A stretch of 64,000 bases of DNA from Psammoneis japonica. Taxonomy: Eukaryota. Positions 26,281 to 55,964 of this stretch are shown piece after piece. The stretch spans positions 62,001 to 126,000 of the forward strand of contig QPGO01000023.1 in NCBI GenBank assembly GCA_008632985.1, written 5' to 3'. The number at the start of each line of letters is the position of its first letter. Positions within the stretch are counted from its first letter, which is position 1. The notes beneath the pieces were generated by a model. That model saw only the letters and a list, made by a program, of their open reading frames with translations. It was not told the DNA's origin and searched no databases. The position numbers and the translations under genes were made by a program.

Positions 26281-26837
26281 TTCGACGGCAGAATGCCATT
26301 TGGGAGGAGTGAACTGCTCAACGCCTCCCGCTCCCGCCGCCTACTTGCACACTTGCGTCGCTAAAAACTTGAACTCAAAATTCGAAAACTGAAAAAACTG
26401 CCTCAACGGAAGCACATCATTGAATTATATTCAAATCCGTATGATAATTTCTTCGGCATCGGTGTGAGGAGGGCAGACGGCCACGACCAAAATTTGAGCG
26501 AGCAGAAAACAGACTGCCAATTCGCGAAGGCGCAAGACGTCGCACACAAAGATCCATCCATCGCAAAACATCCACTCACGGCATCGGCAACCATCACGCA
26601 AAATCCCTGCTGTTGATTTCCAGCTCTGGCAGAGAGGCATGGTCGTCAGCAATGATGATGTCTGGGCAATCTCCAGCAGCAAGATCACATGCCAGGCAGG
26701 ACAGCAGCACATCAACAAGCGCGACGCCAGAGCGACAAAGGAAACCATCAGAACAACAGACCTCAGAGAGAGAAACCTGCTCAGCTGTCTGGGTCTGGCT
26801 GTCATCCACAGAGCTCATGTGCTGACACCCTGCCCTG

Positions 26838-27248
26838 GATGTGCTCCAGCTCCAGGTGGGACCTCGCACACCACCACTGCATTGTGACATCAACAGTTTT
26901 TTGGATCGCACGTCGTGCACGCACACATTTCTGCGTGTGACATTCTATGAAATTGTTTCATGCTCCCTGTTTTGCAAAGCCAAAGGCTTTTTATTTTCAA
27001 CATTTGTGAGAATGAAAATGTGCTGGGTGCATTCTTTAATGTCTGTGCAGAACATGCCCGGGCAAACTGTTGTTTGTGGTGTGCTTTTCAAGCATGAATC
27101 AGGAGATGCGTTCATGAAATTGCCACTTTTTCTGTTGGCAATCATTTGTGTTTTCATTGCAGGATGAATTCACTGCAGATCTTGCATGCAGAATTCTGTG
27201 GGCCCAGTGTCACATCGAGCCCCACCTGCCTGGGACTGGAAACCCGTC
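26838..27248 (-). mobile_element. ~410-bp non-autonomous TIR element, copy A (heavily TpA/CpG converted; inverted relative to copies B and C)
   Basis: Reverse complement aligns along its length with 44183..44578. Termini GATGTGCTCCAG...CTGGAAACCCGTC. CCTG precedes it and recurs after two extra C. Confidence 0.75.
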
Positions 27249-29459
27249 CCCCTGATCTGCAGTGTCTGTCTCCAGAAAGAGCGCAGACACACAAAAAAGA
27301 GTGTGTGTGGCAGGTCACAAAGAACAAAGAAGAGACAAGCTTGCCAGCCAGCAGAAAGATGGCAAACCAGGCAATGCAACAAATGGTCAGGTCCAACATG
27401 AAAAGAGCCATGCAGGGCAATGTCATGTCTCCAAAAACTCTCCAATGGCAGTGGGGCAAGAGTGTGCTGATGCCCCAAAGGAGCAGTCTTTCTTCAAACA
27501 AACAGACAAGCTGCACGCAGCAGCTTCTGACAACCCCCATTGTGGGTTAACCAAGTCTTGGGCCAAAGAACAACTCTCTCAACTGATGGACAATCAAAGT
27601 CAAAGAGGCACGTTGCAATGTTGCTGAATCTTGTTGGGCAAAGTGAGGCTGAATGGAGACCCACCATGGCAGAAGATGCATCAAAAAAGAGAAGCAAGAC
27701 AGCAGTCTGCTGCTCTTCTCAGGACAAACCAACACCTCTGCTGCACATGGCTTGACCTCTGAAATGCGTGCCAAACAAGGAAGGTGCACCGCGGGAAACA
27801 AATCAATGTTGGAAAAATGTGGGCACATCGTGGCAGACATGTGTTGGACACCCCCCCCCCCCCCCCCCCTGTTGCTTGGTCACCAAGTGGGACATCTTGG
27901 AACAGCCCTGCATGCTCTCACTGGGCTTTTTGCACACTTCCTCTTCTTGCACACTGCCCCCTCTTCATCACCCTGATCCTTCCCACCCCTGACCAACAGC
28001 TGCATCAGCAATGCCCCGTGGGTTGAGAGCAGCGCTGCCAGAGGCACAGCATGACAGAATGGTGACTGCTGCCCCACTTCTCTGTGCTGGCCTTTTGTTC
28101 AAATGAGAGAAGTGAAGGCAGTTTGCCAAGCCAAAAATCCCAAAGCAGTGGACATGGCTGCAAGTGTCTTTCCACAGCACTGCAGAGGTGGCAAGCAGCA
28201 AAGATGATACAACCTTGCCAACAGAGCATGATGGCTGTCCATGGGGTGAGTGTGAGGGCCACTTTGTGTGGAACAGTGCAGCACTGGCCAGAAACAGAAA
28301 ATTTTCAAGAAGAAATCTGGAGTGACATTGCAGTCAACACCAGGGGAAAACACCAACCACTGCATGTGGCTTGTTGTTTGCAGGTGCCACAGCATGCGCA
28401 TCAGCATTCCTTGCCTGGGGTCAGCAGCAGATGTGGCTGGGAACAGGAGGGTGCCCAGCAACTTGGGCTCTGCAAACATGTTGGAGCTCAAAAAAGAAGT
28501 CAAGGATGAGAGAAAAACAAAGGAGCTGCCACAACATTTGTGTGGAGATGCACATCTCCAATGACCATTCTTAACTTCAGGAACATGACTGTCAGCAGCA
28601 AAGCCACTGGACATGCGAGCAGGGTCAAACATGGGTTCTTCAAGCATGCTTCTTCTGGAACTCAAACAAGAGATCACAGGTGAAGCAGAAGGCAAAGCAG
28701 CTGTCTTGGTGCTTGTTGGAGTGGTGCTCACAAGATCCTTCTGTGGGTGAGTTGACACCCAACACACCATCAACTTGGGCCACTTCATTTGTGGCAGAAA
28801 TTGCTGCACACCCAAATCTGGGCACAGCTTGACTCTTGATTTGACACTTGTTTGGCAGAGGCTTGAGTTTCAACTCCCAGCAGGATCTGCTGTTCACTTG
28901 ACATTTGCAAACAACAGAAACTGCTTCAAAATCAATGGCAACAGACTTGCTCCAAACTTGGAGAGTGCATTTGAGAAAAACAAGCAACACAGCAGAGTCT
29001 GCAAAAGCTTTGGACTTTCCTTTCATTGTTTTGGTGCCTTTCTTTAATTTGGTGCACTTGCATCAAGAGCAAGATTGTCAATGCATGGATGCCCCACAGC
29101 AACAACTGATGTCAGAGTTGAAGGAGCAGGAGCAACACACTGGCGTGCAAAGGATCAGCCAGGAAACTTTTGTTGCTCAAAACTCTCTGATGACAACTGA
29201 GCACAGAAAATCCAAAAAAAAGGCAGAGGCAACCAGCACCAAAACATCCCAGTGGCGCACATCAACAAATGGCCTTGGGGCATGACACCACAGCGAATGC
29301 CGAAGTGCTGTGGTGGAGAAGCATTTGGGCCGCCTGCTGCCCTCATTCACAACAGCTGCTGCTCTCCCTGTGTTTGATCGCTTTTGCTGGGGTCAAGAAT
29401 GAGTCATTCTTTGTTTTCCTGGAGACACTTTGCTGATGCTGTGTGCTGGCCATGCAGCA

Positions 29460-29690
29460 GTTGCAGAGCGATGGCTGCTTTTGTTGAGAGCTGCTTCTGC
29501 GCGGCAAAAGCGAGCTCCCGCGAGAGCTCTTCTCTCTTTTGGGGGGCAATCATCATCATCACTCACTGTCAAGCCCTTGTCATCAAGAGCACTTGATTGC
29601 TGAGACTTGAACATTCTTTGTTACACTGAGTTTTCAAATTGCTCAAAAACGGGGTGCTGCTGTTGCTGCCCCTGCAGCGCTGCAACTGCG
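29460..29690 (-). pseudogene. Duplicated fragment of the 5' part of the neighbouring 2OG oxygenase gene
   Basis: Encodes ...FEQFENSV*QRMFKSQQSSALDDKGLTVS versus FGQFENSVQQRIIESQQSSALGDKGLTVS at ~24720-24850. Confidence 0.85.
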
Positions 29691-29741: not shown

Positions 29742-30131
29742 GACGCGTTCCAGCCGTAGGTGGGACTCCGTGTGACATTGGACCCGTAGAATTCTACGTG
29801 CGAGCTCCGTAGTACGAGAATTTAATTAATGGATATATTTATCTTCAACATCAAATAAACGGCCAAGTTTGTGGTACAATTATGCCTCTCACCACTCGAC
29901 TTTTTTGCAAATACGCCTGCCCTACGCGATTCTTAAGACATTATAGAATCGCGCTATAACAAAAAATGTCAAAAGTTGTTGGACGGATCGCTCAATAAGT
30001 GTACCGTAAAATGACACAAAATATCGAAAAAATCACGTAGAAATCTACGTGCGCGACATACGACGTGATTCAAAAAACTATCGATGTCACAGTTCAGTAG
30101 TACGAGGTCCCACCTAGACCTGGAACACGTC
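29742..30131 (+). mobile_element. 390-bp non-autonomous TIR element, copy B (TpA intact)
   Basis: Imperfect TIRs GACGCGTTCCAGCCGTAGGTGGGAC / GTCCCACCTAGACCTGGAACACGTC; 4-bp TSD TGGT (29738-41, 30132-35). Confidence 0.85.
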
Positions 30132-32258
30132 TGGTGTGGTGTGTTGTTCCAAATGATGCTCGCCCAATGAGTGAGCCTGTGGTGAGCAAGATTAGAAACA
30201 TGGATGAGTGCAGAAGGAGCAAGCTGTGGTCAGCCATCGTCGCTGCAAATGATCTGTCCTTCCACATGCATCACACCGCAGCTTGCACCGCATGGGTTGG
30301 CAAAAATAAATGACACTTCGGTTCAGGTTGACGGACAGAACTCGCATCTCCCGCACTATCGTTTCACGACGCTCGCGGAGCGGCCACCGCTGCGTAGAAA
30401 TGGCATTTTGTACTGTGACGTCATCTTGCACGTAGATTCTACGGCAGTACTGAAAAGCCGCTCCTTCCTTCTTTTTTTTGGGCCGAAATTCAGATCTGCC
30501 TCCCACAATTCCCAGTACAAAAAATGCGTAAAAGTTACGGAACGAAAATGGTGAGTCGCCGTTCATCGGTAAGAACGTTACTGCTTGTGTTATTGGGTCA
30601 AAACTCGCAATGTTTCGATTGTATCTCATCATTAACTTATATGACTATCGTTCTATCTAAAAATATTGCGACTTTTGCCACTTGCAGAGCGAAAAAAAGA
30701 CTTTTGCTGCCGCCCACTTGTTTCACCCGATGTCGCTGCTTCCGACAACTTCAGGCGACGTTCTCAAGGTTCAACATAGAAGGTGTGGTATGGGATAACG
30801 TTCATTCGTCGATATTTATGATCGAGATGAAGGAGAAAATATCCTGACTGTTGTGGGAGGTGATGCTGAGCTGAAAACAAGAGCTCATCCAAATGTGCAT
30901 CCGTCGCCTTGGTCCTGTCGCAACCGCCTGATCGACTCAGAATGCCAAGAAATTCATGAGGAGGGGTTGTTCAAGGAATTAGAGAGCCCCTTCATGTAAT
31001 AAAGGAAGCTAATATGGGCAAGACAAGGAAACAAAAGAGCAATTCAAGGACGTGAGAACCCGCAAGCTGGTGGACCCACAAATCTGCCAATCTACCACCG
31101 GAGACAATTTGCAATGTAGGAGACGACTCCTAGTTTTAACCAGCAATTCTAAGCACTAGTCCATGCTAATTTATCATATTACGCATTTATAATCTATTCT
31201 TATCATTGAAGTGATGATTTCTAGCGCTTGGAGCCTTCAAGAGAGAACTGCTTGCGCTCACCAAGTTCCGGATCAAATCCACTTTTGGGCTTCAATGGCA
31301 CTTATTGTTTTTGTTGACTCTTGCCACTGCTCATATTCAATGTCCTTCTATGTAGTGGATGCTTCCTGGACTATTGTTAAGCCTTAAATCTACATTATTA
31401 ACAAACTACGCATCGTTCCGTGCACTCAAAATGATGAAAATGGGTGTCCGTAAAAAGGGTTCCGGCCAGCTGTCGTCAATTACCAGTCACTGGTAGTATT
31501 TTCTACAGTTTGATCCCGATCTTAAGAAGCATTGACCGCATAAAAAAGCATCTTTGCAGACAATATGAACAATTTAAGCTGTGCTCCGCATCGATTTGGT
31601 TGGAGCTGGTACATTCACAGGATCAGAGGTCCAACTGCTTACGGCTCCTCAGGAACTCGCATGGATTCTTGACTTCTGACAACCACCCAGGATCGTCTCA
31701 TTTAGGCATAGAGGGAGGAGTATGAGGCGTAGGTTGAAACTTTTGGATGGTTTAATGTAGACATTGAGCCGATTTGATTGTCGAAAATGATCGTGACAGC
31801 AAGGATTGCCGCGCTTGCTTTTGTTTTTGACACGGAAAACACTGCCAAAGAAAGAGCTTGTGACTTTCTATGTCACCTTTATCGAATATATCGTCCAAGT
31901 CATGGGTACCTGCATAATACATTCCACTGTACACCTTCAAAACATTTGCTGTCGTGTCGGATGCAGAAGACACAAAGAAATTGAGTGAAAAGTTCAGATG
32001 ACGATTAAAGGCATCAAATGAAGATTTCTTGCTTTAGCACCCTTACCTTATGATCATAATGAGGTTTTAACATACTATCCAGGTGTTTCTTACACTTGGT
32101 GTTAAATATTGCCGCCGCCGCAACCGATCTCATGGTCGACTTGAGTTGCGTCGCGTGTCTGCGTTTTGGATGAAGAAACATTGATTTTATGGGTTATGAG
32201 CGTTTTGTCGAAAATCACAGCGATGGCCGCGCGGACGTGGCCCAAAAGCGTCGTGGTT

Positions 32259-35290: not shown

Positions 35291-37069
35291 GGCGTTCAGT
35301 GCTTTTTTCTCTTCCAACACACACCATGGGATGCCCGCGCGTTCCATGCGCGCAAAGGCCAATTTTCACGAGGTCGATTTTATCTGACGCCACGTCCAAA
35401 CCACAACAAACAAGAACAGCGCGTTACGGTCCTTTTACAGCAAGAACCTTGTGGACGAATTGCTGCACAGTTGCCAGAAGGAGCTTTCTTTCGAAACCGC
35501 AATGGCAAATATCCTCTCGAAAATGCAGAGGTGGGTCGAAAGCTCTTTGTCGGTGGTGTGGCGTCAAGAGTTTGTGTGACGCGTGTCCTGCCGCATTGGG
35601 AGCATCAATGTGGATGATCACCCCGCCGTGATGAAGGCTCTACAAGACGATGCTCAGATGGAGACGGTAAGCGACGAGGGTGTCAAAGACGCTGTCCAAA
35701 AGGGACAAGCTGCACGGCTCATTGTTTGAACGAAGGACTCGGCCGTGAGTGAGGTGAGTGCAGCGATGTTGGCCCATGAAGAGGATGCTGGAGTGCCGAT
35801 GTTGGGTCACGTGGCCATTTCTCGCATGGCAAAGTCTACAAATAGCTTCTTTTCTGCAGCTGCGGCAGTCAGCTTCATGAAGGCTTGTCCCAACGAGGCA
35901 GCCGTAAAAGACAAGGCGCGCAAAACGCTCAAGTCCTTGGCAGGAGCTGACGAACAGCGAGAAGTTTCCTCTGTGGCGCTCGGCGCAGTTGCCGCATTGT
36001 CGATGCAATGCAAGCACACGTGACTGATCCGCAACACAGAAAGAGGCATGCGGAGGCTTTGCTGGAAGTGTTTCTGGTGGTGGGGTGGATCGTGCCACGA
36101 GTGTGGGGGTTGACAGCGGGCTCACCGTCGTTGTCAATGCCATTGAGTTCGTGCAGAGGTGTTTGGCGTTGAAGCACATGACGGGCTGTCCGCGAGCCGA
36201 CAAACCCGACATTCTAACTTCTCAATCAGAGCCTGCTGCTGCTTGCCACCAAGAACAAGTTTCCAAAGTCTTGCGGCCTGACTGTGGCTGTGTTGCACAC
36301 TGGGCCAAAAGGAAAGAAATGTGTGCATTGAATTGCGGAACACAATGCATGTTGCAAGACATTGGGGCACTCAAGAGAAATTGCCAAGCTTCTTTCAACA
36401 CACACTGTCAAATCTGTCAAGCAATGGCAACCATGGCGGGTGCTTGACGGCAAGCTCTCTCATCAAACTGTCTCATCAACTTGCTCTGAACATGACTGGT
36501 GTGGGTTGAATGGGTGCTCATCTGCCGCGGTTGCGAAAGGTTGAATGCTGAGTGCAATCTGCTTGTAAGTTCACGTTTGGTCGTGATGGGTTTCTCTTCA
36601 AATGCGCAACATGGAAGCTGAGCTGCAAGTTGGTGGCTGCTTCCACTGAACTCTTGCATGCCTGGCTAATGTGGTTGGTCTGTCTGCACCGCCAGGGATG
36701 ACGAAGGGCGGCTTCACCGACTCCTGCCCTCAAACATCTTGCTGGCATGGGAGACGATGCAGGGGCTCTCAATTGACACGTCGACAAAGGGCGCCTCCAC
36801 CACCACACCTGGGCCTCATCCATGGTGGTGTTGTCGACGTGGCAAGGGCTCTCGAACACCTCGCCCGTGGCGGGATCACACACTTTCACCATGGGACGAT
36901 CCTGATTTACTTTGGGGGGCAACTGACCACAGTTGACAAAGGGCGTTGTCACTGCTTGGGCCTCGTGCATCTTGCATGGTTCGCTCCGATCATTGCGTCG
37001 AGGGATGTCAAACAATTTGCCGGTCGCACGAACTCTGGTGGTCATCAGAGAATGCTCTGCCTCTCTGGG

Positions 37070-38400
37070 AGGCTGACTGCTGTTGGGCACGCAGCAGAAC
37101 CGAGTTTTGACAAAGCCCGGCTTCATCACCTGAGCCTTGTGGATTCTGCAGCCTTTGCCGTCAGCAAGTGAGATTTTGAAATGGACGTCGCTGCCGGGTT
37201 TTGCGAACGCTGTTTCCACATGAGCCATGGCAACTGGCATGTTGGGACAGGGGCTGAACGCGGCCAACATTGCTTGACCTGCAATGACGCTTCCCGTGGC
37301 ATCGAGCATTTCTGTGCGCTCTTCTGGGACCTCAGTCATGCATGCAATGCCAACGAGCTTTCGTGCCACCTTCTGAAGCCTGCAATCTTTTGTGAGGATG
37401 CTGTCTGCACCCAAGAATCCACCCTCTTGGCGTCGGCGATGTGGGGTGGTCCAGCCCAAGCTAGCCTCAACAGGGCCTGCTGATTCACCCAGCTCCTTGC
37501 CCTTCGCACAGAGGCCTGCCTCAAGGCTGAGGGTGTTCAAAGCTGTCAAGCTTCCTGGCATCATGCCAGAGTCTTCCAAGAGCTTGGATGCAGTCAAGAC
37601 AGCTGATTCGACAGCAGGAATGTGAAGCTCAAAGCCATCCTTGCCTGTGAAGCCACAGCCATGAGACGAAAGACAATGGAGTTAGTTCGCAAGTGGTGTT
37701 GTCATGCACAAATGACATGGCAGGCACCAATGTTGTGTCCTGTCCTTGCCGAGCAACGCGACAAGCTTCCGTGCTGCCACGGACAACAGTTTTTTTGCTG
37801 GACATGAATGCCATGTGTTCCAAGTTGAAGTCCGATGGAAGCAGCTTCGCCATTGCAGAGGGCAAGCCAGGACCTTGCAGGGCCAAGATGGAGTGGTGAA
37901 AGCACTCCATCTCAACTTGGCCGCCAAACATTTCCAACTGCTTGTTGAAATGCTCTTTGCATCGGGCATGAGCAGTCATGACAAAGCAATCTCCGACATT
38001 TGTGATGATTGCATCGTCGATGATCCCGCCCGTTTCATTCATCATGACGGACAGGATGCACATGCTGTGTTCAAGAGAGGCAATGTCTCCCACAAGAATT
38101 CTCTCCAGGAACTCAACACAGTCTTTTCCACGCCAAGACATCTGTTGTTGAAGAACAATTGTTTTAGAGAAAAAAACACAAGTTGTGTTCAATGCGAGAA
38201 CCGCTTTGTAACTTTGCATCACGCTGGAGACATGAACACACCTGAATGAGAAAAGACAGATCAAAGAGAGCTGCTTTTCCTTCGGAGCGGCAATGAAGGT
38301 GTTCCTGGGTGGGTTGATCAAGGTCATCACCAACAGACTTTCCCACTGGCTTGGATGCAGGAAGGCTTCATTTACTTCAAACAACATTGTTCTGATTTTT
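37070..38400 (-). pseudogene. gcvT: Glycine cleavage system T protein (aminomethyltransferase) pseudogene, intron-containing
   Basis: EHLHCRSEGKAALFDLS, NETGGIIDDAII, LALQGP, LSLEAGLC, FLGAD, PVAMAHVET and FVKTRFCCVP. Frameshifted; GT-AG intron at about 38142..38241. Confidence 0.85.
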
Positions 38401-39402
38401 GTTTTGGCTTGTGTGCAAAAAGAATTCATGAGTGGTTGATGAAATCTTCGGGTGCGTAGATGAGTGAGGGGCCGGGAAGATGCTTCACGGAAGTGTTTGA
38501 AAGCATCTCAGATGATTCCCTTAACTTTGGTGAACAATTCAAGCAGATCAACATTTGTGCGCTGGGAGAACAGATGTCGCAACATGACAAGGGAAGAAAT
38601 GGTTCGGTTCAAGTGGCTCCTGGCAATGGCAGATCCCATCAAAGTGCAGCTTTCATCGATTCTCTTTTTCTTTCCTCACTCCTCTTATGATGCATCCTCA
38701 TTTGAAGCATGGCATGAACCTGCAACAGACTTGCCTTGTTGGACTCGACATGAAGCTTGAGGGTAACATCGGATGTGACGGAGCACTTCAGCTGGCATGC
38801 TGCTGCAACAAGGACATGCGGGTGTCCTTTCTCGATGCATGTGACAGCTTTGAGTCATGCTCATGCTTTCGGGCCTTGACATGTCTTGAAAAAAGAACTT
38901 CTGAAAAGGAATCGCTCAAGAGACGGAGATGTCACGCTTTCTTTGCATGGGTGGGACTCTACAGAGAGCCATGACAATGCTGTGGCCGCACCATCGTCAA
39001 CATGGACCAGCAATTGATGACCTTGTAAATGCACAGCTCCTCCTTCTTGCACATCTCCATTCATGTTCATCTGCTCAAAACAACAGAAATTAAAATCTGA
39101 AAAAAAAGAGTGTGAGTTGTGAAGCACAACTCAGCGAGTGGATCAATGTGAACGAACGACACAAACAGATCTTCAAACGCTGTGGGACGTGGAGAACACA
39201 GCTGACACAACGGGCCGGCGACCCACAGGAGCATCAAACCTGTGGGGGATCAGATGTGAGATGCTCAATGAGCAACTCAAGCGGTCTGAACCACCTTGCA
39301 ACCTTCACAAAAAAGGCTGCCCTTCGGGGTTGTCAAGCACACCGTCTTGGTCCACAACGTCCACAGGCATTCAGAGTGCATTCAAAAAGAAAGCAGAGGC
39401 TG

Positions 39403-39780
39403 TGCACTGTGCTTGAAGAACGAGTGCAAACAAAAGTAGAATGAAGTTCAAAAAGTGAAAATTGTGAGAATTGTTTCTGCACAATCATTTTGGATTTCTC
39501 CGAATGGGTTCTCATTGGCCCAAACCTTTTGCACTGCTCCCACAGACAAAGGCCTTTCGGAGAAATCAATCATGACAACAGATTGTCCGGATGAAATTGA
39601 TGTTGACACGCAAGATGTCAACATCATTGTACAGTCACATTTGCGATTCTCGACATCCGATCAACTCTGTGTGATTGATCTGTCCTTCATGCGAACCCAC
39701 GATTGACACACGATTGGAGTGTAAATTTGTTTGACATGTGGACGTGCATGTGCACAACGCACACAACAATGCACATTGCA
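39403..39780 (-). repeat. 3' LTR
   Basis: Aligns with 44600..44978; adjacent to the PPT. Confidence 0.92.
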
Positions 39781-39806
39781 TTCGCCTCCCCAATTGCACA
39801 TTAGAG

Positions 39807-42800
39807 TCAGTCGTCAAACGGCATTGTCCGACGAACATTGACAGCGTCAATGACGTCACCGCGTTTGATCTGTGCTGTGCCATTGGCGTGTGCCGTTGTC
39901 ATCACATGCGGTCCAATGTGGGGCTGTTCCAGTTTCTGTGAGTCCTTTTCGAGCAGCATTTTCTCTCCTGCTCTGCACGCACAAGGAGTGCGTCGAGTGT
40001 TCTCTCGAGCATTGTTTTTGTTTGTGATTTCTTGTTTTTGCTGCCGGATTGATTTCCAGTCTGCGACATGTTGGACGTTAAATGTCATGTCCCTGTTGAA
40101 AACCAATTGCCCAGGTGCAGCTTGTGTGGCAGTGTGACACATGGAATGCACAGCAAAAGCCGCTGCTGACAATGTTCCAGTGAAGGGATCCTCAGTGTCC
40201 AGAGGTGTGTGTTGCAAATCAAGCGTGCGGATCACATTTCCGAGTGCTTGATGTGCGCATTCAACAATTGCATTTGCTTGTGGATTTCGTGTGGTTGCAG
40301 GCTTGACTTCAATGCCACAATCCTCTTGCACCATGTCTTTAAATTGGTGTCCGATGAACTCACTTCCACGGTCACATGCAATTGACGATGGCCAAGGATG
40401 TCTGCCCAACCATGTTCGTTCTAATGATCCGGCTGCAGTTGTGGATTCCTTGTTTGGGATTTCCACAACTTCAAAACCATCCGGTTGCCGGATCAATCAT
40501 TGTCAAACATTTCAGGACTGGGGGTTCTTTCTCTCCCTTGCAACGCATCTTGCACGGCCCAATGAGATCCACACACAGTCATTCCCATGGCGCTGATTCT
40601 GCGCACTTGGGAGGTAAATGTCCACATTTCTTGTGTTTCTTTTTGAATTTCTGGCATGTCTCACATCTCAACACGCATTTTTGCATGTCTTCACGCAAGG
40701 TGGACCACCACAGGTGTTGTGAGATTGTCTCTTCTGTTCGACCCATGCCAGGGTGAAGAAGGTGCGCATGACACCAATCTGTCACTGCTTTTTGCAACGT
40801 CTTGGGGACAACGATTTTTTCCTTGTGACATGTGAGCAACCGGTCTCGCTCGCCTCCATGAAAAGTCTTCGTGTGAAATGTCTCATTTGACAATTTGGAG
40901 AGAATGTCTTCACCCCGCTTTTGTTCACAATCAAGAACTTTACAATTTAATGGAAAGACATTGTCACAGGATTTTGGTGGGACCTTCTCAGCTGACTCTT
41001 CTGTGCTGAGGGTTTCCACAGGTTCTTTTTTTTTTCATGGTGAGTCGGCTGATCGCATCTGCAACAACATTTGCCTTGCCCTCAAGGTGTGTCATTTCAG
41101 GACTGCACTCTTCCATTGTCAGATGCCAATGCATGACTCTGTTTGTTGTGAAAATTTCATGTGTGAGATTTTTGTGATCCATGCGTGTGTTTGTCTGTTG
41201 GCCAAACAGCACATTTCGGAACTCCTTTAACGTCTCCACTGTGGACAACAGCTCTTTTTCTGTTGCAGCACAATGTGTCTGCACTCCATTCAGCTCGCGG
41301 CTGTAGAAGGCAATTGGTCAGTTCTTCTGTGTAACAACCGCCCCCAGTTGAGAATTGCTTGCATCAGCGTGCATCTCAAAGGGTGTGTTGAAATTCAGAC
41401 ATGACAATGATGTGTCTTTGGAAATTTTGCGCTTCACATTTTCGAAGGCTTTTTGTTCTGTTTTGGTCCATTGCCACCTTGCTTGTGTTGAAGTGAGTTT
41501 GGCAAAGGAGCTAAAACATGAGATTGTCGAGGCCACATGTCTCGACAGCAGTTGATCACACCGACAAAGCGACGCAATTCCTTGCGAGTTTCAGGAGTTG
41601 CGATTGCGTGAATCGCTTCTGCCTTTTTTGGAATTGGACTGATGCCATTGCGAGTGATGTGGAAGCCCAGATAGTCTGCTTCGGGTTTAGCGAAAAAAGA
41701 CTTTTCGGCATTGACCTTCAATCCGGCTTGTTCTGGGCGTAAAAACACCGTCTCAAGCTTCTTGAGGTGGTCTTGAAAATCACCTTTTGCAAGGCACAAC
41801 ACATCATCAATGCAAGTTCTGATGAACTCCAGACCTGCCATGAGCTCATTCATGTGCTCTTGGAAAATGTCTGGAGCTCCACAGATTCCCACAGGGAGTC
41901 TACAGCACTCATGCTTGCCCCAAGGCATGACAATTGTGCACAAACGACGTGCACGCGGCGTTGGCTCGACATGGTGGCATCCCACATTTAAATCTGGGGA
42001 CGTTGCACACATGAAACCTTCAAGTTTCTGTGGCACATCCTGAACACTGGGCAGAGGAAACGGAGTGTGTGTCAACCTCTTGTTTGGCTCACGAAAGTCA
42101 GGTGGAAATCAAACTCGACCATTTTTCTTGGGTTGAACAAAGGTTGGAGCGGCCCATTCAGAGCAATTTGTTTTTCTTAAGACCTTTAACTTGCACAGTC
42201 TTTCAACCTCTTTACAAGCAGTCACCTCCAAGGCTTGTGGTGCGGGAAATGGTTTGGCATGATGCGGACTCATGCCCAATTTCAACTTCAAATCCACCGG
42301 CTTCCGGTCCATTTGCCTGGAGAACCATCAAAAAGGTTTTCAAATCTTTTTAAAAGGAAGTTCAGCTGCTTCTGCTCTTCAGGAGTTAGATGAGCAGCTG
42401 CTGCTGTCACATCATTGAGGTTTGCGGCGTGACAGCCTGAATCAAGGATCCGATTGACCCTGTCATTAAGACTGATCACTGCATGAGATTCCTCAATGTG
42501 ATCGGCAATCAACTTAAAAACATCGGCATCGAAGAGTGCACCAACATTCTTCATGGGAGCAGTTGCATCTTCCCATTTGATCTCTTCACTCGAGAAGTCT
42601 GACATTGTCCCAAGACTCGACATTGAGTCATGTCCCATGATCATGTCACAACGACTCGAAGAAGAAGAGGAGTTGTCAACATGTGCCGTTGTTTCGATCA
42701 TCTTGTGTTTGTCAAATTTGGGCAAGGAGAGTTGGATTTTACATTGACTGTCAGTCGTAAAGAGCCCTCCTTTGGTTTCCCAGAGTTTGGTGGCGGACAC

Positions 42801-43010
42801 CTTGGTTCTGAGTTTTCACGTGAATTTGCGCAAAATTGTGGTTGACGATGTTCCGCTGTCGAGGAGAACACGCAGAGGCTCATTTTTCGCTTTGCCCAGG
42901 GAGGCATTCATGTGAGCAACGACAACTGGACTAGTGTGAGTCATCTTGGCCCTTTTTCCGGGCTTCCCAATGTCCAGCAGTGCGCAAGACTCTCTTGCGG
43001 TGCAAGTCAT
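39807..43010 (-). pseudogene. pol: pol (protease, RT, RNase H, integrase), broken by frameshifts and stops
   Basis: VLLDSGTS (PR); SEWAAPTF, FPLP and RTCIDD (RT); DASNSQLGAV and TEKELL (RH); HPGMGRT, CETCQK, DRGSEF and NPQANAIVE (IN). Confidence 0.92.
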
Positions 43011-44163
43011 TCCTCAGAATCGCTGCGCGTCAATTTTTCAAACTGACAATTCTCCTCGTCAAGGGTGTCAGAGTCACAATCTTTGCTCTTGCACTTTTTG
43101 TTGTTGTTCGAAGAACTCGCCTTGAGTGATTTTTGAACTGCTTGGACTGCCGTGGCATTCAACTCTTCTTTGCGAGTGGCGTTGTCGTTATCGCGACGAG
43201 ACCACGTGCGATTGCCATTTGAACGGCACCGTTTTGGGTCGGGTTCACAGTTCCCACGGCGTTCTTTTGCAAGTCTTTTAATCGACCAGCACTTGTCCGC
43301 ATTGTGAGTGGATTTTTCGCACAGAATGCACCACTTGTCGGACTGAGATTTTTCGGTGCCATGTTGGTGACCATTTTTGGAACCACGTTGGGAACCACTC
43401 TTGGCTTTCGATCCAGCACTGCTGCTGGGATCAGCCTTGGCATGAATGCCGTCAAATGCATCCTCAGCGACCTCTGGGCGCTCCAAAAACTCCACCAACT
43501 CGTCACAGGTGTGTTTCAAAATTTCGAAACCCTGGACGGTCGACTGGCGCTGCCACTTTCGAGGTGCAAGATTGAAGAGGATGTCCTTGAGCTCGTCCTC
43601 CTCGATCTTCTGATCCTTTCCAAAGGGAGGACAGAACTTGAGGTCTTCGTTGACTTCCTGGACCCAAGCAGCAATCTCGCATGCTTTCATTGACTCGGGC
43701 TTCTTGAGATCGCGACGTAGATGACGTTTCTGAACCGAAAGTGCGTTCTCAGGAAACACGTGTTTCGTGAGGTGCTGCAGGCATTTCTCGAAGCTTCCTT
43801 CTGTAGATTCGTCTTCAACATTCGCCGCTGCATTCTCAAAAGCACGTAGAGCTTCTCCTTGTGGCAACACATGCATGAGACGGAACTCATCGGCTTGCTT
43901 GCTGATGTTCTGGCCCACCAGAAGTTGACCGTAGCTCTTTAAAAATTCGATGTGCTTGGGAACGCCCTGTTTCTTGCAGTGCTTGACGTTGATCGTGTGG
44001 GTCCAACCATCCTTCTTCTCAGGATGAAAACACTGCTCCATCTTGAGACACTGGCTTGGTTTGAGGCTCTTTGGCTCGGAATTCGATTCCAACGGTTGAG
44101 GGACGATTCTTTCCTGCCTTGACGAAGTCTTGGCCTTGGTTGCCTGAGGTGTGAAAGCTTCAT
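43007..44163 (-). pseudogene. gag: gag of the Gypsy element
   Basis: VFPENALSVQKRHLRR..KKP, DELKDIL...P.KWQ and a CILCEKSTHNADKC zinc knuckle. The upstream part of ORF 43007..44407 merely runs through the inserted TIR element. Confidence 0.85.
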
Positions 44164-44182
44164 CTTGAACTGGTTGCCTTCT

Positions 44183-44578
44183 GACGGGTTCCAGCCCCAG
44201 GTGGGACTTTTTGTGACGTTGGGCCCGCAGAATTCTGCGTGCGAGCTCCGCAGTAAAATTGTTGAGCAATGGATGCATGAATGATCGCCAACAGAAAAAG
44301 AGGCAATTTTGCGAACGCATCTCCTCTTCCACACTTGAAGTGCATTCTTTACAGCATGCCCGGGTGTGTTCTTTAGACATTAAAGAATGTGCCCAGTGCA
44401 TTTTCATTGACTTGAGTGCAGATGACAGAAAGCCTTTGGCTTCGCAAAACAGGGAGTGTGGAACAATTTTTTATAATGGAACACGTGGAAATGTGCGTGC
44501 GAAACATGCGACGGATGACAAAAAATGATTGTGTCACAGTTCAACAGTGCGAGGTCCCACCTAGAGCTGGAACACGTC
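44183..44578 (+). mobile_element. 396-bp non-autonomous TIR element, copy C, nested in the Gypsy 5' leader
   Basis: TIRs GACGGGTTCCAGCCCCAGGTGGGAC / GTCCCACCTAGAGCTGGAACACGTC; 4-bp TSD TTCT (44179-82, 44579-82). Confidence 0.88.
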
Positions 44579-44599
44579 TTCTGTGGTGTGCATGCACAA

Positions 44600-44978
44600 T
44601 GCACTGTGCTCAAAGAACGAGTGCAAACGAAAGCAGAGCAAAGTTCAAAAAGTGAAAATTGTGAGAATTGTTTCTGTGCAATCATTTTGGATTTCTCCGA
44701 ACGGGTTCTCAATGGCCCAAACCTTTTGCACTGCTCCTGCAGACAAAAGGCCTTTCGGAGAAATCGATCGTGACAACAGATTGTCCGGATGCGATTGACG
44801 TTGACACGTGAGATGTCAACATCATTGCACAGTCGCATTTGCGATTCTCGACATCCGATCAACTCTGTGTGATTGATCTGTCCTTCGCACGAACCCACGA
44901 TTGACACACGACTGGAGCACAGATTTGTTCAATGTGCAGATGTGCACACATGTGACGCACATGACAACGCATGTTGCA
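44600..44978 (-). repeat. 5' LTR
   Basis: Aligns with 39403..39780. Confidence 0.92.
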
Positions 44979-45662
44979 GCTGGCCCTCATGTGGCTCCTC
45001 CTGCTCAAACAACTGCTTCACTAAAAAGTGCGTTGGTTGGCACCGGGTCACTGCCGCATTGGACATTTGCAAGCATTCAGTGCACATGCAAGAAGCGAGT
45101 TTGCTGGCAATCGTGGTGCATCTCCATCGGAACCACGGACCACTTTGACAGGCAATCGTCATTTCGCCTCGAACCGACTTCCAAAGACACACGCAATCAA
45201 ACGCACAGAGGAAAACCGTCAAGGACCCAAGCCTTCAGGTCCACATGGCAATTGTGTGCGGACGACATTCAATGGCTCAACTCCAGCAGATCTAATTCTC
45301 AACGAGAACGAGACGATCGACTCACCTGTGGCAGAGTTGTGATGCAACCATGGCAACAAAGACAACGATGTGTTTCAAACGGTCGAATGGTGATTTGTGT
45401 GCTTCGTCAACAATGAGCAAAGTGATTCGGATTTCACGTGTCCCGGTCTGCCGTTTCAAAATTTTTGAAAATGTGGCGGGAAACCAACGGTGTTTTTCAC
45501 TATCGCATTTTGCGTGCTTGTACGAACACCGATGACGTCGGCCAAATTCGTCAGAGTACGAGCTCCGAACTCTAAGATTTCCCTCCCTCCACCATCACAC
45601 CTCGCCACAAAATAAAACGCGATACAGTAGATCAAAGGCAATCACTTTATTTCTTCTCCATC

Positions 45663-49843: not shown

Positions 49844-51419
49844 TCTTGTGTCAGCTTGTGTGTGTGTTGCCTAAGCTACTGTGAGAGCTGATACAAAATG
49901 ACAGTATTATATTTCGGTAAGAGAGAAAGGAGTTGCAACAACAACCACAAAAAAATATCATGAAAGATCGCAACACAGAAAATGCTGAAATGACTACGTT
50001 CTACTATGCGTGTGCTGTGTGCGTGCGGCTTGTGCGGTGTGTGCGGCCCGTGATGAGAGACGACACATCGCCTTATTGAGCCAATGCCTGAAGATGCACA
50101 ACATTTTACACAATGGAAAGCAACTTCAAAAGATGAGCTTTTGTCCGTTGTCCTCAGAGACACAGGACAACGTGGCATGATCTCTGACCCAAAAGTCATG
50201 CCCTTCACCCATGCAGGTTTGCTGACAAAGCAAGGAAAGTTCTCATGTTTTGGCGTCAAGACAGAGCTGCAACCACCGGCGCTTTCATCCTGCCAGAGCT
50301 GACAGCACAATGGTGAGGAGAGCATGGAGAATCCGGCAAATCTTCCTTTTGGCTTGATCTCATCAAAATGCCTCAGCAACACTGTGGCAAATGACTTTCC
50401 AACTGAAGCTGCATTTCAGCCCCCTCCTGCTCAACAACAAAGCAAGACTGCTCTCTCCTTTGCTGCTTGCCACATGGCCACAGCATCATTCCAGAACAAA
50501 GCACATTTGTTGGTGGCCCAGACAGCAAACCCACAAACAGAGATCTTGATTTCTGTGGGAGTGGCAGCAAGCTGTGGTGTCTGGAGCTGCTTTTGTGTGG
50601 AGACACATGTCATGGCTGATTTTGATGTGAGCACAACGGCTGCAAGCACCAAGAAGAAAGAGTTGCACCATGAAAGACCATCTGGCTGTCAACTGCCATG
50701 GACCAAAAAAAGTTGCAGGTGCAAGAATTAAAATCTGTGAGCTGTGCTGGCCACATTGTGGGAGGCTGCAAAACTGCAAAATGTGCTTGTGCCAAATTTG
50801 CTGAAAGACCAATGTTCCAGAGCTGAGGCTGCAATGTCCAGCAGCCACCTCTCTTTGAGACATTTCAGCCAATCCAATCTCAAATGAAATTTGACATGAC
50901 TCCACTGGCACATGGAGGCAGGAAGAAGCTTGTTGGGTGTGGATTCAAGTGAGAGCAGAGTGCGCGTCCAATTTGCAAAAGGCGCAGACATCTTTGGGCG
51001 TTTTTGTTTTGAGCACAGCATGTGTTCTGAGGGAGCTTGTTTTGCTGTTTCTGCTTGTGATCAGGTTGCTTGTCTGTCCCACCCTCTCATTCATGGTGTT
51101 CTACCTGCATGTGCTTTTGGTGTGTGGGCAGATGCATTGGCGCACATCTCCTGTTTCTGTTGTCTCCTTCTTGCATTTCTGGCTCCTTTGTCCTTTTCAG
51201 TTTTCAGCCATTTGTGCATGGCACACAAAGTCTGAGCTGCAGTGCATTGAAGAGCTTGCCACACATCATTGAAGACATCCAAAAATGCCTGGATGACCTG
51301 GCTCATTGCAGTTTGACTTGCTTTGAAATTTGGTTGCGTGTGCCCAGTGACCCACTGCAGTGCTCATCATTTCATCACCATTGTGGGGACAGCCATGTCT
51401 CATGATCAACACCAGCTCT

Positions 51420-51880
51420 TGAGAAGGCCACAGTGTTGTGTGGAATGTGAGCAAGGACAGAAGATGGAGCTGTGTTTTTAATCTGCTCTTGGCTTGCTTG
51501 GAGGAGGGAAAGCATTGCAGGGTCCCTGCTGAATGGCTCTGGAGAATGGTTTGACTGGCAACGAAGTGACGAAAAAGCTTGACATGCTTGATGCTGTCAG
51601 AGAAGAATGACTTGAGCAGGTTGGAGTTGTGTGGGATGTGTTGGAAAATCAGAGCCTGCTTGTGCTCCTGCAGACACTTCTCAGTGAGCACAACTCGAAG
51701 AGGCTGGAGTTCTTTTGAACAACTCAAGGAGCACAGTGGACATTGCACAGTGCCCAGCAAACACGCCAAGGACCAAAAAACCCAGGAATTGGCTGGACAA
51801 TCAATGGCAAGCTGGTGGGTCTGGGGATCATGCAAAGGTGGTTGCATGGATTGAATGCTGGGTCTCAACGTTGTTTGCCC
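51420..51880 (+). pseudogene. Helicase-associated (HA) repeat domain pseudogene
   Basis: VWNVSKDRRWSCVFNLL...HCRVP, LDAVREE*LEQVGVVWDV and FEQLKEHSGHCTVPSKHAKD match HA repeats, with Y->C/H and CGA->TGA changes. Confidence 0.7.
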
Positions 51881-52688
51881 AAAAAGCAGTCTCCACCACT
51901 GCCAGTTGGTGTTGACAGTCTTCTGCGATGACACTCTTGGTGTCATCTTGTCAATGTCAATGAAAGAATGAACCACATGACACATGGCATTGAATGTTTC
52001 TCCAGCCATTGTTTGGCTTTTTGACTCCACCAATCACCAGCTCATGACCATGTTTTTATGACACGTTGGCTCCATTTCCTCTTGCACCATCTGGCCTGAG
52101 ACATCAAGCTTGGTCAACTCAACTTTCAATGGCTGGCATCTTTTTAATGGTGCATGCAGTGACTGCCAGGTGTTGGCAATGTCTTTGTTGCAAGCAGTCT
52201 CCACTGTGAGACAGTGGCTGTTGAGTGTCTGTTGTGGTGGCACAAGAGTGAAATGTTGCACAGCTTGCTGCTGTTTGCCATTTGCCACTTGCTTCGAATT
52301 TAAGTTGAAGCACCAATGTCTGCATTGCACAGTGTGCTCCTCTTGAGAACAACAGCTGGCTGCAGTGTCTGACAAGAATGGAGAGAACAGAGACCATGGG
52401 AAGCTCCACAGCTTCCCAGCCAAACAAGATCTGGAGTGGCTGGCAAAAAGAGAGCAGCTCTGTTTGCTCCTTGCCTTGTTCCAAGCTCATTTCCAAGAGC
52501 ACACTGTGACAATGCTTTCTCACACTGCTGCTGCAAAGAAGCCAAAACAACAATGACAACAACAACAACAACTGCACAAGTGTGCCAAGAGGCAAGAAAC
52601 ACCCCCAAGACGACCCACCTGAATGCCCCACATTGGGGCACATTCTGGCAGCCAAAGCAAGGCTCACAAACCCACAGAAAAAGGAGAG

Positions 52689-53738
52689 GTGGAACAGCAG
52701 AGCAGCACAATGACCAGATTGTGTGCATGTGCACAACCTGCACAGCAAAATGTGCGAAATTTCCCAATGTTGAAAAAGTGCTTCCTGCTCTGCCACATGT
52801 GTGAGGAGTGTGTGGCGCTTCATGCACATCATGGTCTGCTTTGCTGTGGTTGACAAGCCCTTCCTGCATGCCGGCCAACATTGCTCAAAAGACACCCTCA
52901 TGAATGTTGTGAAGCACACAGCACTTTGCTGTCATCCCAACCTTTTTCTTGAAGAAAGGGTCCCCACTGTCTCACTCACTTTGCTGGCTGTTTTCAGAAG
53001 AGACAAGCTCGAAACTTCTGACAAAGCACACAAACTTTGACATTGTTGGAAAAGATCAGCTGCTCACAAGCCAGCACCAGATGACAACACAGAGCTTTGT
53101 CATTGTCATGCCGTGCTCTGGTGGCTGCTGCTGGCCCTCTCTCTGAAAGAAAAGTCTTTTTGTCAGCCTGCTTTAATCTGGAGCTCGGACCTCAACCACG
53201 AAGACGTGGAACAGCAGAGCAGCACAATGACCAGATTGTGTGCATGTGCACAACCTGCACAGCAAAATGTGTGAAATTTCCCAATGTTGAAAAAGTGCTT
53301 CCTGCTCTGCCACATGTGAGGAGTGTGTGGCACTTCATCATGCACATCATGGTCTGCTTTGCTGTGGTTGACAAGCCCTTCCTGCACGCCGGCCAACATT
53401 GCTCAAAAGACACCCTCATGAATGTTGTGAAGCACACAGCACTTGGCTGTTGTCCCAACCTTTTTCTTGAAGAAAGAGACCCCACTGTGCCACCCTCACT
53501 TTGCTGGCTGTTTTCAGAAGAGACAAGCTCAAAACTTCCAACAAAGCACACAAACTTTGACATTGTTGGAAAAGATCAGCTGCTCACAAGCCAGCACCAG
53601 ATGACAACACAGAGCTTTGTCATTGTCATGCCATGCTCTGGTTGTTGCTGCCAGCCCTCTCCACTGAAAGAGCAAGGCCAAAAAGTCTTTTTGTCAGCCT
53701 GCTTTAATCTGGAGCTTGGACCTCGACCACGAAGACGT
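52689..53738. repeat. Two tandem ~517-bp copies; the 3' part recurs at 54584..54725
   Basis: GTGGAACAGCAGAGCAGCACAATG at 52689 and 53206; ACAACACAGAGCTTTGTCATTG...GAAGACGT again from 54584. Confidence 0.9.
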
Positions 53739-55964
53739 CCCTGTCAGACTGTCGGCAGTTTCTTTCATTTCTGCGGTTGCCGTAAAGCGCACACAGGAAT
53801 CAGCAACAATTTTGAAAGTGCCAAGTTTCCACAATTCTTCTACATGCAAAATCATGGTGGCAATTCCACAGAGATGCACAAAAATGACAGTTGGACAAGC
53901 ACACCATTGTCCCACAATGAAAACACCACACAAGGCAATCTGCACATGTGCTCCTTCTTTGACACATGCACCCTCAGCAAATTCCTGAGCTTCTTGCAAC
54001 TTCCATGCAAAAAATTGCACCTTTTTGCAAAGAACAGGGCCAGCAGGTTGCCAGTTCATGGGTCAGCTCCCCATGATGTCAGCAAGAAATCCCGCTGGGA
54101 AATGTCAACAACCACCAAGTCAGATCATCCTGGAGACTGTCAGCAACAAAAAAGGATGACCACATGTGGCGATCTACATGGAGCCAGTGGAGGCTGTGAA
54201 CAATGATGAATTAAAGCCAATGCAAGGCCAGCTTCATTGTTTCAAGAGAAAGCCATGTGTGGTTGAGGACCATGGCACAGCGCCTCTCTCACATGAAAGA
54301 AAAGAGCGCCGCTTCTTTGGCATCAAAGACTTTTGACATCATTCCATCTTGACAATGATGGCTCTTTCTATGACAAGCAAACTTCCCAAACCAAGAAGCA
54401 CAAACCCTCACTGCTCTGTTCAATTCTGCCCACATGACAACTTGTTGAATGGACACATTGTTTTTGCACCCATGACCAACCATGGCAAAGGAGCTGCTCA
54501 ACTGCGCAGCTGCTGTGGCTCCAGAGATTGCAAGCTGTGTGTCACACCCATCACCTGGAGAACTAAAGCTCCTAACTTCAGTCACAACACAGAGCTTTGT
54601 CATTGTCATGCCGTGCTCTGGTGGCTGCTGCTGGCCCTCTCTGCTGCACTGAGAGAGCATGGCAGAAAAGTCCTTTTTGTCAGCCTGCTTTAATCTGGAG
54701 CTCGGACCTCGACCACGAAGACGTCACTGTCGGCAGTTTCTTTTCTACGGTTACCGTAAAGTGTACGTAGGAATTGGTACAATTTTGAAAGTACTGAGTT
54801 CCTACGAATCTTCTACATACGAAATCATGGTAGTAATTCTACAAAGATGCACACAAAATGATAGTGATTGAGAAATTTAGCAACGGTCACGAAACAAACA
54901 AATCTCTGTCTCGGAAATTCTTTCGTTTCGATCACAACTCGTTGTCTCGCACGATGTGTTGTTGTTCGCCAAGCAACGATTGCCGCGATCGCCCAGGATG
55001 GCTCGCCCTTCTTGCGGATAATAGAGAGCTAGCTCTTGTTTGGTGTTCCACAACTCATCATGCTTGTTGACGTGTTGTCTCCAGGTGGCGTAGGTGTTGC
55101 CAGTTAAGTCCAGAGGTCGGGGCAAATCGAATGCGTCTCTCCGGCCTTGAGTCCATGTCACTCTCGTGTCTTTGAGCGTAGGAAGTTGCCTGTTCGCTTG
55201 GCCCGTCAGGTCACGGCTGTTGAAACAGACAGCAGCGTTCGTCTGTGAAGCAGCAAAAGCTCGCCGAGCAGATCATACCGTTGACGGAACACAGGTTTGG
55301 GGTTCTGTCGTATCAGTGACATGATACGGTAAGTCTTCACTCGTAGGGAGTGTTGATTTAGAACGCGGTCGACTCGCAAGTTTTCTTGTTGTCTCCGTAG
55401 TACGTCCCCCCTTTTACTTTTTTTAGTGACATTTTTCACTCTGAAGATACGTAAAAGCTTGAGCGCCATCTTTTGACGGCGCTCTTGAGGCAACGTTACC
55501 CTACGCAACCGATTTCAATAGCAACTTTTGACTCTTTGAAGCTTTTCCAATAGAAATAGAAAATATAAAGTGCAATATAGCAATCTTTACTTTTGTGCAA
55601 ATTATTCCGTGCATACGTCAATGGAATGCGATGACGTTCGTAGCGCTTGCGATGTCATTGCATGCTTTCTTGCCTGGGGCCCACGCTGGGGTATTCGTTA
55701 CGGGATGCCGCAAGGCTTGTCGTCGACATGTGCTAGACTGTTTCGGCGCTGATCGCCTGCTGCATATTTTTTATCGATTCGTGGTATTCACGCAACAGAA
55801 GAATGCCGAATGCAAAGCCAAGGGGGGTTTATTCCGGCCCTCTCAATTCTAAAGTAGCTAGCTACAATACGCTCTATTCATAGCTAGAGAGAACGAAAGA
55901 TTCGCGTTTCGTGAGTTTATTTGTCTGGCGGTACCAACCTCCGTTTATCCTCTTTATCACCTGG

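Follow-up and report, generated by a model that had tools for sequence, protein, structure and literature searches.

Purge of TpA dinucleotides from a dead Ty3/Gypsy retrotransposon and from sharp-edged blocks around it in a diatom genome

Introduction

The window studied here is a stretch of 64,000 nucleotides from the diatom Psammoneis japonica (contig QPGO01000023.1 of assembly GCA_008632985.1, forward strand, positions 62,001 to 126,000). It carries, on its minus strand at positions 39403-44978, a Ty3/Gypsy retrotransposon with long terminal repeats (LTRs), nested in an older repeat. This element, a dead member of a very abundant family, has lost most of its TpA dinucleotides to TpG or CpA, and dinucleotide profiles show that it lies in one of five sharp-edged, TpA-purged blocks, which together cover ~20-21 kb. 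The purge has rewritten roughly a third of the 64 kb. The ancestral state was TpA, the changes occurred in DNA after integration, they are confined to the blocks, and they depend on the bases that flank the dinucleotide. The repeat DNA underwent TpA hypermutation after integration, and a host adenine deaminase acting at silenced repeats is the likely agent, in a defence that would resemble the repeat-induced point mutation (RIP) of fungi. In the literature that was searched, no report of a TpA purge in diatoms was found, and the signature is described only in a preprint on the chlorarachniophyte Bigelowiella natans (Mettrop et al., bioRxiv 10.64898/2026.01.13.699255). The TpA purge in diatom repeats agrees with this chlorarachniophyte process, to which it adds a clear flanking-base preference.

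Loss of TpA and compensating gain of CpA and TpG

As a baseline at the DNA level, 79 related metagenome loci were used, which had been found through an alignment of intact relatives with the Tyr-containing patterns NYYRDMW and LDLNMGYY. The observed/expected ratio (o/e) of TA is 0.11 in the element against 0.77 ± 0.12 in these loci (minimum 0.51), which places the element more than five standard deviations (SD) below its relatives. Per kb of sense strand, TA falls from 61.3 in the relatives to 7.7 in the element (-53.6), CA and TG rise by 25.1 and 31.8, respectively, and CG is unchanged (39.3 vs 41.7). The loss of TA is thus wholly covered by the gain of CA and TG, near-evenly between the strands, as expected from A:T to G:C transitions on either strand. 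A scan of the metagenomes with the mutated reverse transcriptase (RT) as query gave 114 pattern matches, none of which was confirmed.

Timing of the changes

The LTRs allow the purge to be placed in time. Both lie on the minus strand as direct repeats of 378-379 bp, the 5' LTR at 44600-44978 and its 3' partner at 39403-39780, with TG at the start and CA at the end in the orientation of the element, and they are 86.7% identical over 383 columns. A single insertion begins with two identical LTRs. In this one, they have come to differ in 51 of 379 columns, of which 44 fall in pyrimidine-purine dinucleotide pairs (TA, CG, CA or TG) and only 7 elsewhere. The differing pairs comprise 16 CA/TG, 3 CA/TA, 5 CA/CG and 4 CG/TG combinations; among the unchanged ones are 12 CG/CG and no TA/TA. 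Since initially identical LTRs now differ by CA/TG doublets, the purge struck integrated DNA, and it did so separately in each LTR. Such independent mutation excludes an editing of the RNA before reverse transcription.

These counts also permit rough estimates. CpG loss would amount to ~27% per LTR, from which about one CpG-derived CA/TG doublet is predicted. The other ~15 doublets suggest ~33 ancestral TA sites per LTR, of which ~95% would have been lost. The per-base rate at TA would then be ~100-200 times that at other sites, with a background estimate that rests on 6 substitutions.

Two pairs of related sequences within the window give a view of the state before and after the purge. An unmutated paralogue piece at 54746-54870 (plus strand), just outside the block at 50200-54740, retains its 13 TA sites, and in the copy inside the block (53772-53895) these have become CA in 6 cases and TG in 5, with 2 kept. 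Likewise, 110 bp of the Gypsy 5' region are present in unmutated form outside the blocks at 30034-30143 (plus strand); the 5 TA sites of this fragment are replaced by TG (4) or CA (1) in the element itself (44482-44590).

Dependence on flanking bases

The bases on either side of TA affect its fate. Relative to the background of the window, survival in the blocks is 0.87 for TTAA, followed by 0.24 for CTAA/TTAG, 0.21 for GTAA/TTAC, 0.12 for CTAG, 0.11 for CTAC/GTAG, 0.07 for ATAA/TTAT, 0.04 for ATAT, 0.03 for ATAG/CTAT, 0.02 for ATAC/GTAT and 0.01 for GTAC; the range for ATAT, ATAG, ATAC and GTAC is 0.014-0.037. Of the 98 TA sites that remain in the blocks, 27 are TTAA, compared with 67 of the 1754 background sites (p = 1.6e-14), and the surviving sites are scattered through the blocks. 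The same order of contexts is obtained against the family's own baseline, with 0.46 for TTAA and 0 for ATAT and ATAC.

Purged blocks across the window

The purge is a property of regions. In the five blocks, TpA stands at 0.01-0.11 and CpA/TpG at 1.5-2.0 of expectation, compared with 0.59 and 1.2 in the background. The block that holds the Gypsy element and its flanks (35500-45500, unstranded like the four others) has edges that abut host genes: it spans the whole gap between two of them, and TA density is normal within ~200 bp of its edges. Its TA o/e is as low in the flank (0.10 at 35500-39400) as in the element (0.11). This flank includes, at 36521-38507 on the minus strand, a pseudogene of the aminomethyltransferase GcvT, recognised by the Pfam families GCV_T and GCV_T_C and by matches to aminomethyltransferases of the PDB. 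It is spread over two frames and has 1 Tyr in 679 codons. The pseudogene is of host type and no obvious mobile element; it may be a duplicate, a captured gene or a portion of some larger repeat.

The earlier note on this DNA, which had proposed an editing of TpA that destroys the enzymes of retroelements, was right that TpA is lost and that the change wrecks the RT, RNase H and integrase of the element. The process is not, however, specific for retroelements: it extends over five blocks, and both the non-Gypsy flanks and the GcvT pseudogene were purged as well.

The four other blocks have a CpG o/e of 0.16-0.27, against 0.74 in the Gypsy element, so that loss of TpA and loss of CpG are separable. 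The first (1400-3000; TA o/e 0.06, CG o/e 0.16) is purged of both dinucleotides, with no recognisable coding content and no Pfam match, and the second (6200-7600) has a TA o/e of 0.01 and a CG o/e of 0.25. In the third (26400-29600), positions 26838-27248 correspond to the Gypsy 5' region in a copy of greater age (72% identity). The last (50200-54740) contains a tandem duplication of ~520 bp (52685-53207 and 53202-53738, 92.6% identity). Its copies share their CA/TG states, as 108 CA or TG pairs agree and only 3 are discordant, and the duplication therefore postdates the purge. Two more partial copies of the unit cross the right edge of the block near 54740. When 74 open reading frames (ORFs) of the other blocks and of the flank were searched, no Pfam family was found at E <= 0.01.

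Stop codons are redistributed in the blocks, with 5.0 TAA and 2.0 TAG per kb versus a background of ~17, and 46.8 TGA versus 37.1. The mean distance from stop to stop is 35 codons in the blocks compared with 26. Because the purge removes TAA and TAG, dead repeats appear as long ORFs in all six frames.

Loss of tyrosine

Tyr is the sole amino acid whose codons always contain TA. The recoding of Tyr into Cys or His, which the earlier note had taken as the mark of inactivation, is therefore the protein-level shadow of the TpA purge; changes of Ile, Leu and Thr and the loss of TAA and TAG stops are further shadows of it. A search with the RT piece of the element gave 239 relatives at E <= 1e-10. 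Among the best 120 of these 239, all contain 2.8-5.7% Tyr, and 71 of the 120, with lengths of 1000-1199 aa, were placed on the element by tblastn and used for a codon map of pol. Their mean composition is 3.7% Tyr, 1.3% Cys and 2.9% His. Over the 1014 pol codons that are each covered by at least 40 relatives, the element has 2 Tyr, 38 Cys, 45 His and 4 stops.

The replacement of Tyr is systematic. In the 20 columns (out of 482 conserved ones) where at least 80% of the relatives have Tyr, the element shows Cys 13 times, His 4 times, Phe once and Tyr twice, whereas 359 of the 462 other residues conserved at this level are kept (Fisher p = 6.8e-10 against 2 of 20 Tyr). With a threshold of at least 50%, the 34 Tyr columns give 16 Cys, 8 His, 6 Phe, 2 Tyr, 1 Arg and 1 Ser. 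Further codon shifts agree with the prediction of a TA-directed process, namely Ile to Val, Thr or Met, Leu to Pro, and Thr to Ala; changes of Arg to His, Gln, Cys or stop in pol reflect CpG decay as well. Altogether, 153 base changes can be deduced at conserved columns, with 33 TA to TG, 19 TA to CA, 20 of CpG type, 29 other transitions and 52 transversions; as the choice of ancestral codons favoured TA and CpG changes, the totals of 52 and 20 for these two classes are upper bounds. The alignment of pol to intact relatives thus bears out the polarity that had been proposed, from ancestral TA to TG or CA, with changes concentrated on codons that contain TA.

Most of the individual motifs named in the earlier note find their ancestral form in the consensus of the relatives. 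This holds for the change of YIDD into CIDD in RT (codon TGC at 41814-41812), of GYYH into GCHH and KYEY into KHEC, and of RYTTTE into HCAATE in RNase H. In the integrase, HIGPH stands where PY.GPY had been postulated, and the relatives have y.GPy. On the other hand, the supposed change of TYHT into MCHT in the integrase is not borne out, since the relatives' consensus at that column is Val. For KRHLRR in gag, an ancestral KRYLRR is plausible and uncertain, the relatives having Tyr in 24, Trp in 20 and Phe in 5 of 52 cases. As claimed, the gag frame is nearly free of Tyr (1 in 487-488 codons). At one conserved Tyr column of gag (position 158; Tyr in 25 of 29 relatives), the element has His.

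It had also been suggested that runs of changes on the same strand betray a processive event. The adjacent triple of TA to TG changes on one strand, at 41272-41266, is real. Yet the 24 Tyr-derived Cys/His sites form 10 runs versus 11.7 ± 2.1 expected (p = 0.28), and the 52 polarised TA events form 26 runs versus 25.1 ± 3.3 (p = 0.66) with a longest run of 9 (p = 0.21), in tests of limited power that miss part of the TA to CA changes at third codon positions. Processivity thus finds no support in these runs tests. Cys and His at Tyr-derived sites are found in a ratio of 16:8 (p = 0.15).

Architecture of the element

The span first assigned to the element, 39807-44163, lies within it and represents its inner part; the full extent is 39403-44978. 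Copies of the target-site duplication GCTG, read directly in the sequence, flank it at 39399-39402 on the left and 44979-44982 on the right (both unstranded). An empty site is provided by a paralogue contig from the sequencing run X2 (~90% identical), which joins position 39402 to position 44999 without the element. This confirms the insertion site and shows that the flank is itself a repeat. A purine run on the strand of the element, adjoining the 3' LTR at 39781-39791 (minus strand), would from its position be the polypurine tract.

Between the LTRs, all coding regions lie on the minus strand in the order typical of Ty3/Gypsy elements: gag, protease, RT, RNase H and integrase, collinear by tblastn with the 71 full-length relatives. 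The gag frame (43007-44470) was recognised by its translation and by tblastn against gag regions of metagenome relatives (60 matches), and it has one C-x2-C-x4-H-x4-C zinc knuckle. The protease region (42300-42962) keeps its D-S-G motif and was delimited on the codon map with the 71 relatives. RT (41440-42294; RVT_1, E = 5e-11), RNase H (40990-41439; RT_RNaseH, E = 1e-13) and integrase (39810-40959; zinc domain Integrase_H2C2, E = 9e-15, and catalytic core) are supported by these three Pfam matches, which lie in ORF pieces between 40579 and 42108, the catalytic core being recognised by alignment to relatives only. With its two LTRs and short target-site duplication, the element is a regular member of the group. 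It is no active copy: relative to its relatives, pol changes frame four times, near 42294, 41503, 40959 and 40475, and carries four in-frame stops in addition to the CIDD motif.

Abundance of the family and recurrence of the signature

Public sequencing reads point to a very large family, since the element is matched by 7069 contig pieces from run X1 at a likeness of at least 80%. On these pieces, 802 of 912 variable places are transitions. Insertions or deletions relative to the family, at 40473, 41503 and 42303, coincide with three of the four frameshifts. Of 40 variable places listed out of 916, 27 lie inside the element; five of these have TA in the family versus CA or TG here, and the rest are mixed. 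Contigs built from the X1 reads contain 61% of the sampled words of the window; three runs, all of one sample and study, match the window, and no RNA run is listed among the matches. In the region 44150-44925, that is, the 5' untranslated region and 5' LTR, summed depths of X1 contigs reach 40,000-139,000, compared with ~2,400-9,000 elsewhere in the element. This 5' region seems far more abundant in the genome, perhaps because of solo LTRs or of a module common to other families.

Similar proteins occur in public collections. Among the best 150 of 47123 representative proteins, 4 are free of Tyr and the other 146 contain at least 1.9% Tyr. These four Gypsy pol records (P0260, P0362, P0369 and P0387) form nameless singleton clusters; ENA is the source of three and NCBI that of the fourth. 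Their lengths are 175-699 aa, their contents of Cys 2.9-5.0% and of His 4.5-5.3%, and they have CIDD, CLDD or HLDD in place of YxDD. Compared with an intact relative of 69% identity, P0387 keeps none of 32 Tyr (16 His, 12 Cys, 3 Phe and 1 Val) and 73% of the other residues. Those of its relatives that bear a species or genus name belong to two diatoms, Nitzschia inconspicua and Mayamaea. A scan of contigs with P0387 recovered only an intact relative, 45% identical, with normal TA content (o/e 0.72, 32 Tyr). The Tyr-free public records are probably hypermutated dead copies that were called as genes, and their source organisms could include the species of the window itself.

Other features of the window

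Host genes of the window have long, nearly uninterrupted frames. One of them encodes a nucleotide transporter, whose closest named relatives are from diatoms (Seminavis robusta, 72% identity, Mayamaea, Ditylum and Chaetoceros); none of its matches reaches 100%. An open frame of 1200 codons at 19364-22966 (minus strand) corresponds to a Cys-rich protein with many near-identical repeats of ~75 residues, visible as DNA repeats at 19808-21250.

Possible mechanisms

As described above, the repeat DNA was hypermutated at TpA after integration: 5'-TA-3' was converted into TG or CA in the DNA, across the element and the surrounding block and close to saturation, most strongly at ATA/TAT and GTAC and hardly at all at TTAA. 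According to the mechanism that is considered likely here, a host enzyme directed to the chromatin of silenced repeats would deaminate adenine at TpA, and the resulting hypoxanthine would be read as G. This may be the same process as that proposed for the integrated viruses of B. natans, and it would act as a genome defence comparable to RIP. CpG decay arising from cytosine methylation would be a second, slower process in the same blocks.

Several considerations weigh against this interpretation. The enzyme and the rule of its targeting, be it homology, chromatin or small RNA, are inferred. Since TA is palindromic, A to G is hidden from T to C, and adenine deamination is one of several chemistries that fit. 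Repetition was measured for the Gypsy family, and the GcvT pseudogene and other contents of the blocks may or may not be repeated. Having been fetched with Tyr-containing patterns, the 79 DNA relatives are biased towards unmutated copies, and the context baseline assumes that TA contexts of the ancestral repeats resembled those of the background or of intact relatives. Finally, the public runs share a single sample, and the assembly itself may have been built from them, which makes them no independent proof.

As a more tentative extension, TpA hypermutation might be an old genome defence common to stramenopiles and rhizarians, perhaps even to the whole assemblage of stramenopiles, alveolates and rhizarians, in which an adenine deaminase or a TpA modifier, favouring ATA/TAT and GTAC and leaving TTAA alone, acts on silenced repeats. 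In such a defence, coding capacity might be erased within a short evolutionary time, by a mirror image of RIP that removes stop codons.

The mutations could also be targeted by the sensing of homology instead of a chromatin domain, although we regard this as unlikely. As in fungal RIP, duplicates above a length threshold would be mutated, perhaps at a sexual stage. The family is indeed highly repeated, and outside the blocks two of its short fragments, of 110 and ~125 bp, are unmutated; short duplicates escape RIP. Moreover, some diatoms carry a DNMT4 related to the fungal RID, the function of which is given as unknown in the available part of the source (PMC9998398). However, the chemistry is opposite to that of RIP, which creates the TpA that is destroyed here. 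The purge also fills the gap between host genes, including sequence with no repeat detected in the window, and the main target in B. natans is single-copy according to the preprint sections available (bioRxiv 10.64898/2026.01.13.699255). It should be noted that the repetition was measured for the Gypsy family.

Rather improbable, in our opinion, is that the transitions are a by-product of a symmetric base modification at TpA in silenced DNA, causing mispairing at replication as 5-methylcytosine does. The modified base could be thymine, as 5-hydroxymethyl- or 5-formyl-uracil made by a dioxygenase of TET/JBP type, or adenine. TA is palindromic, as is CpG, the strands are affected near-equally (+25.1 CA and +31.8 TG per kb; Cys:His of 16:8, p = 0.15), and CpG decay in the blocks indicates modified chromatin. 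To our knowledge, though no search aimed at this was made, no such modification has been reported in diatoms, and a loss of TA ~10 times faster than that of CpG in the same LTRs is extreme for a passive by-product. In dinoflagellates, an enzyme of the TET/JBP type makes 5-hydroxymethyluracil and silences transposons, from what the consulted part of the publication states (PMC11572971). For Crypthecodinium, studies of the 1980s reported a preference of this base for TA and TC (cited in PMC11071213), but the TA preference was not recovered in Breviolum in the portion of the same article that was available (PMC11071213). In addition, the process of B. natans is on in some lines only and looks regulated, so far as the accessible preprint text shows (bioRxiv 10.64898/2026.01.13.699255).

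A hyperediting of adenosine to inosine in the RNA of the element by an ADAR- or ADAT-like enzyme that prefers a U on the 5' side of its target, the edited copy then being reverse-transcribed and integrated, is very improbable. The change of A to G after a 5' T does correspond to the classical neighbour preference of ADAR, as the preprint's available text recalls (bioRxiv 10.64898/2026.01.13.699255). Nevertheless, the LTRs were made from one template and now show 16 CA/TG doublets and 3 CA/TA pairs between them, both strands are hit, and flanks that are not retroelements, as well as the GcvT pseudogene, are equally purged. The LTR comparison contradicts this candidate, and the matching 4-bp target duplication argues against recombinant LTRs. 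An ordinary cause, be it neutral decay with age, Cys/His variants natural to the family, or an error of sequencing or assembly, has practically no credibility: the element is old enough to have gathered four frameshifts and four stops, but just 7 of the 51 LTR differences fall outside pyrimidine-purine pairs, its TA o/e is more than 5 SD below that of its relatives, Tyr makes up 2.8-5.7% in each of the best 120 of the 239 relatives, and contigs from the reads of a public run contain 61% of the sampled words.

Significance

If TpA hypermutation of integrated repeat DNA is general in diatoms, this major group of the phytoplankton would possess a mutational genome defence besides DNA methylation, and a comparison of diatoms with B. 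natans could then lead to the enzyme. Base-editing research would have an interest in a natural activity changing A:T into G:C in double-stranded DNA with a preference over four bases. For annotation, the purge sets a trap, as gene callers let dead repeats enter protein databases as Tyr-free 'proteins'. In dating, TA and CG sites need to be masked, as otherwise LTR divergence makes insertions look older than they are.

Comparison with known systems

The closest counterpart is found in B. natans. According to the parts of the preprint considered here, de novo mutations of hypermutable viral inserts in this organism lie without exception at TpA and are almost exclusively A to G or T to C, at a rate ~1000 times the background; the targets are integrated giant-virus and virophage DNA, the candidate enzyme is a homologue of ADAT2, and RT and DDE domains are over-represented among coding sequences poor in TpA (Mettrop et al., bioRxiv 10.64898/2026.01.13.699255). 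The signature, from TpA to TpG or CpA on both strands, is identical to that of the diatom window, where the loss of TA is balanced by CA and TG. In both cases, the purge is confined to particular regions of inserted or foreign type, which stand out in the genome as TpA-poor clusters rich in CpA and TpG; in the window these are the five blocks, with normal neighbours and edges sharp to ~200 bp. The two cases also differ. The host is here a diatom, thus a stramenopile, and there a chlorarachniophyte, a rhizarian, and the targets are here LTR retrotransposons, unclassifiable repeats and a host-type pseudogene. TA o/e is 0.01-0.11 in the blocks, near saturation, versus 0.45 in a B. natans viral insert, as reported in the preprint's available sections. 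The diatom process is known from its fossil record (~100-200 times per base, from the LTR estimate), that of B. natans from de novo events. A dependence on flanking bases, with TTAA spared, was found here, and the available portion of the B. natans main text does not mention one.

Fungal RIP, in ascomycetes, resembles the diatom process as a dinucleotide-specific transition hypermutation that inactivates repeats in DNA after insertion and leaves sharp-edged blocks of aberrant composition. Its direction is different: RIP changes C to T mainly at CpA and creates TpA and stops, whereas TpA, TAA and TAG are removed here, TpA being at 0.01-0.11 of expectation and CpA/TpG enriched. ADAR, a metazoan enzyme family, shares the change of A to G with a preference for a 5' U or T neighbour. 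It edits RNA, and would leave the same states in both LTRs; the changes studied here are in integrated DNA and arose independently in the two LTRs, as seen from the 16 CA/TG doublets and 3 CA/TA pairs. The last system, CpG decay of methylated transposons, likewise consists of transitions of a palindromic pyrimidine-purine dinucleotide into TpG or CpA, confined to silenced repeats. In diatoms, transposons are methylated by DNMT5a, as stated in the consulted part of the source (PMC9998398). The purged blocks show CpG decay too (CG o/e 0.16-0.74); it differs from the TpA purge in its dinucleotide and in being ~10 times slower in the same LTR pair, and CpG in the Gypsy element is at the level of its relatives.

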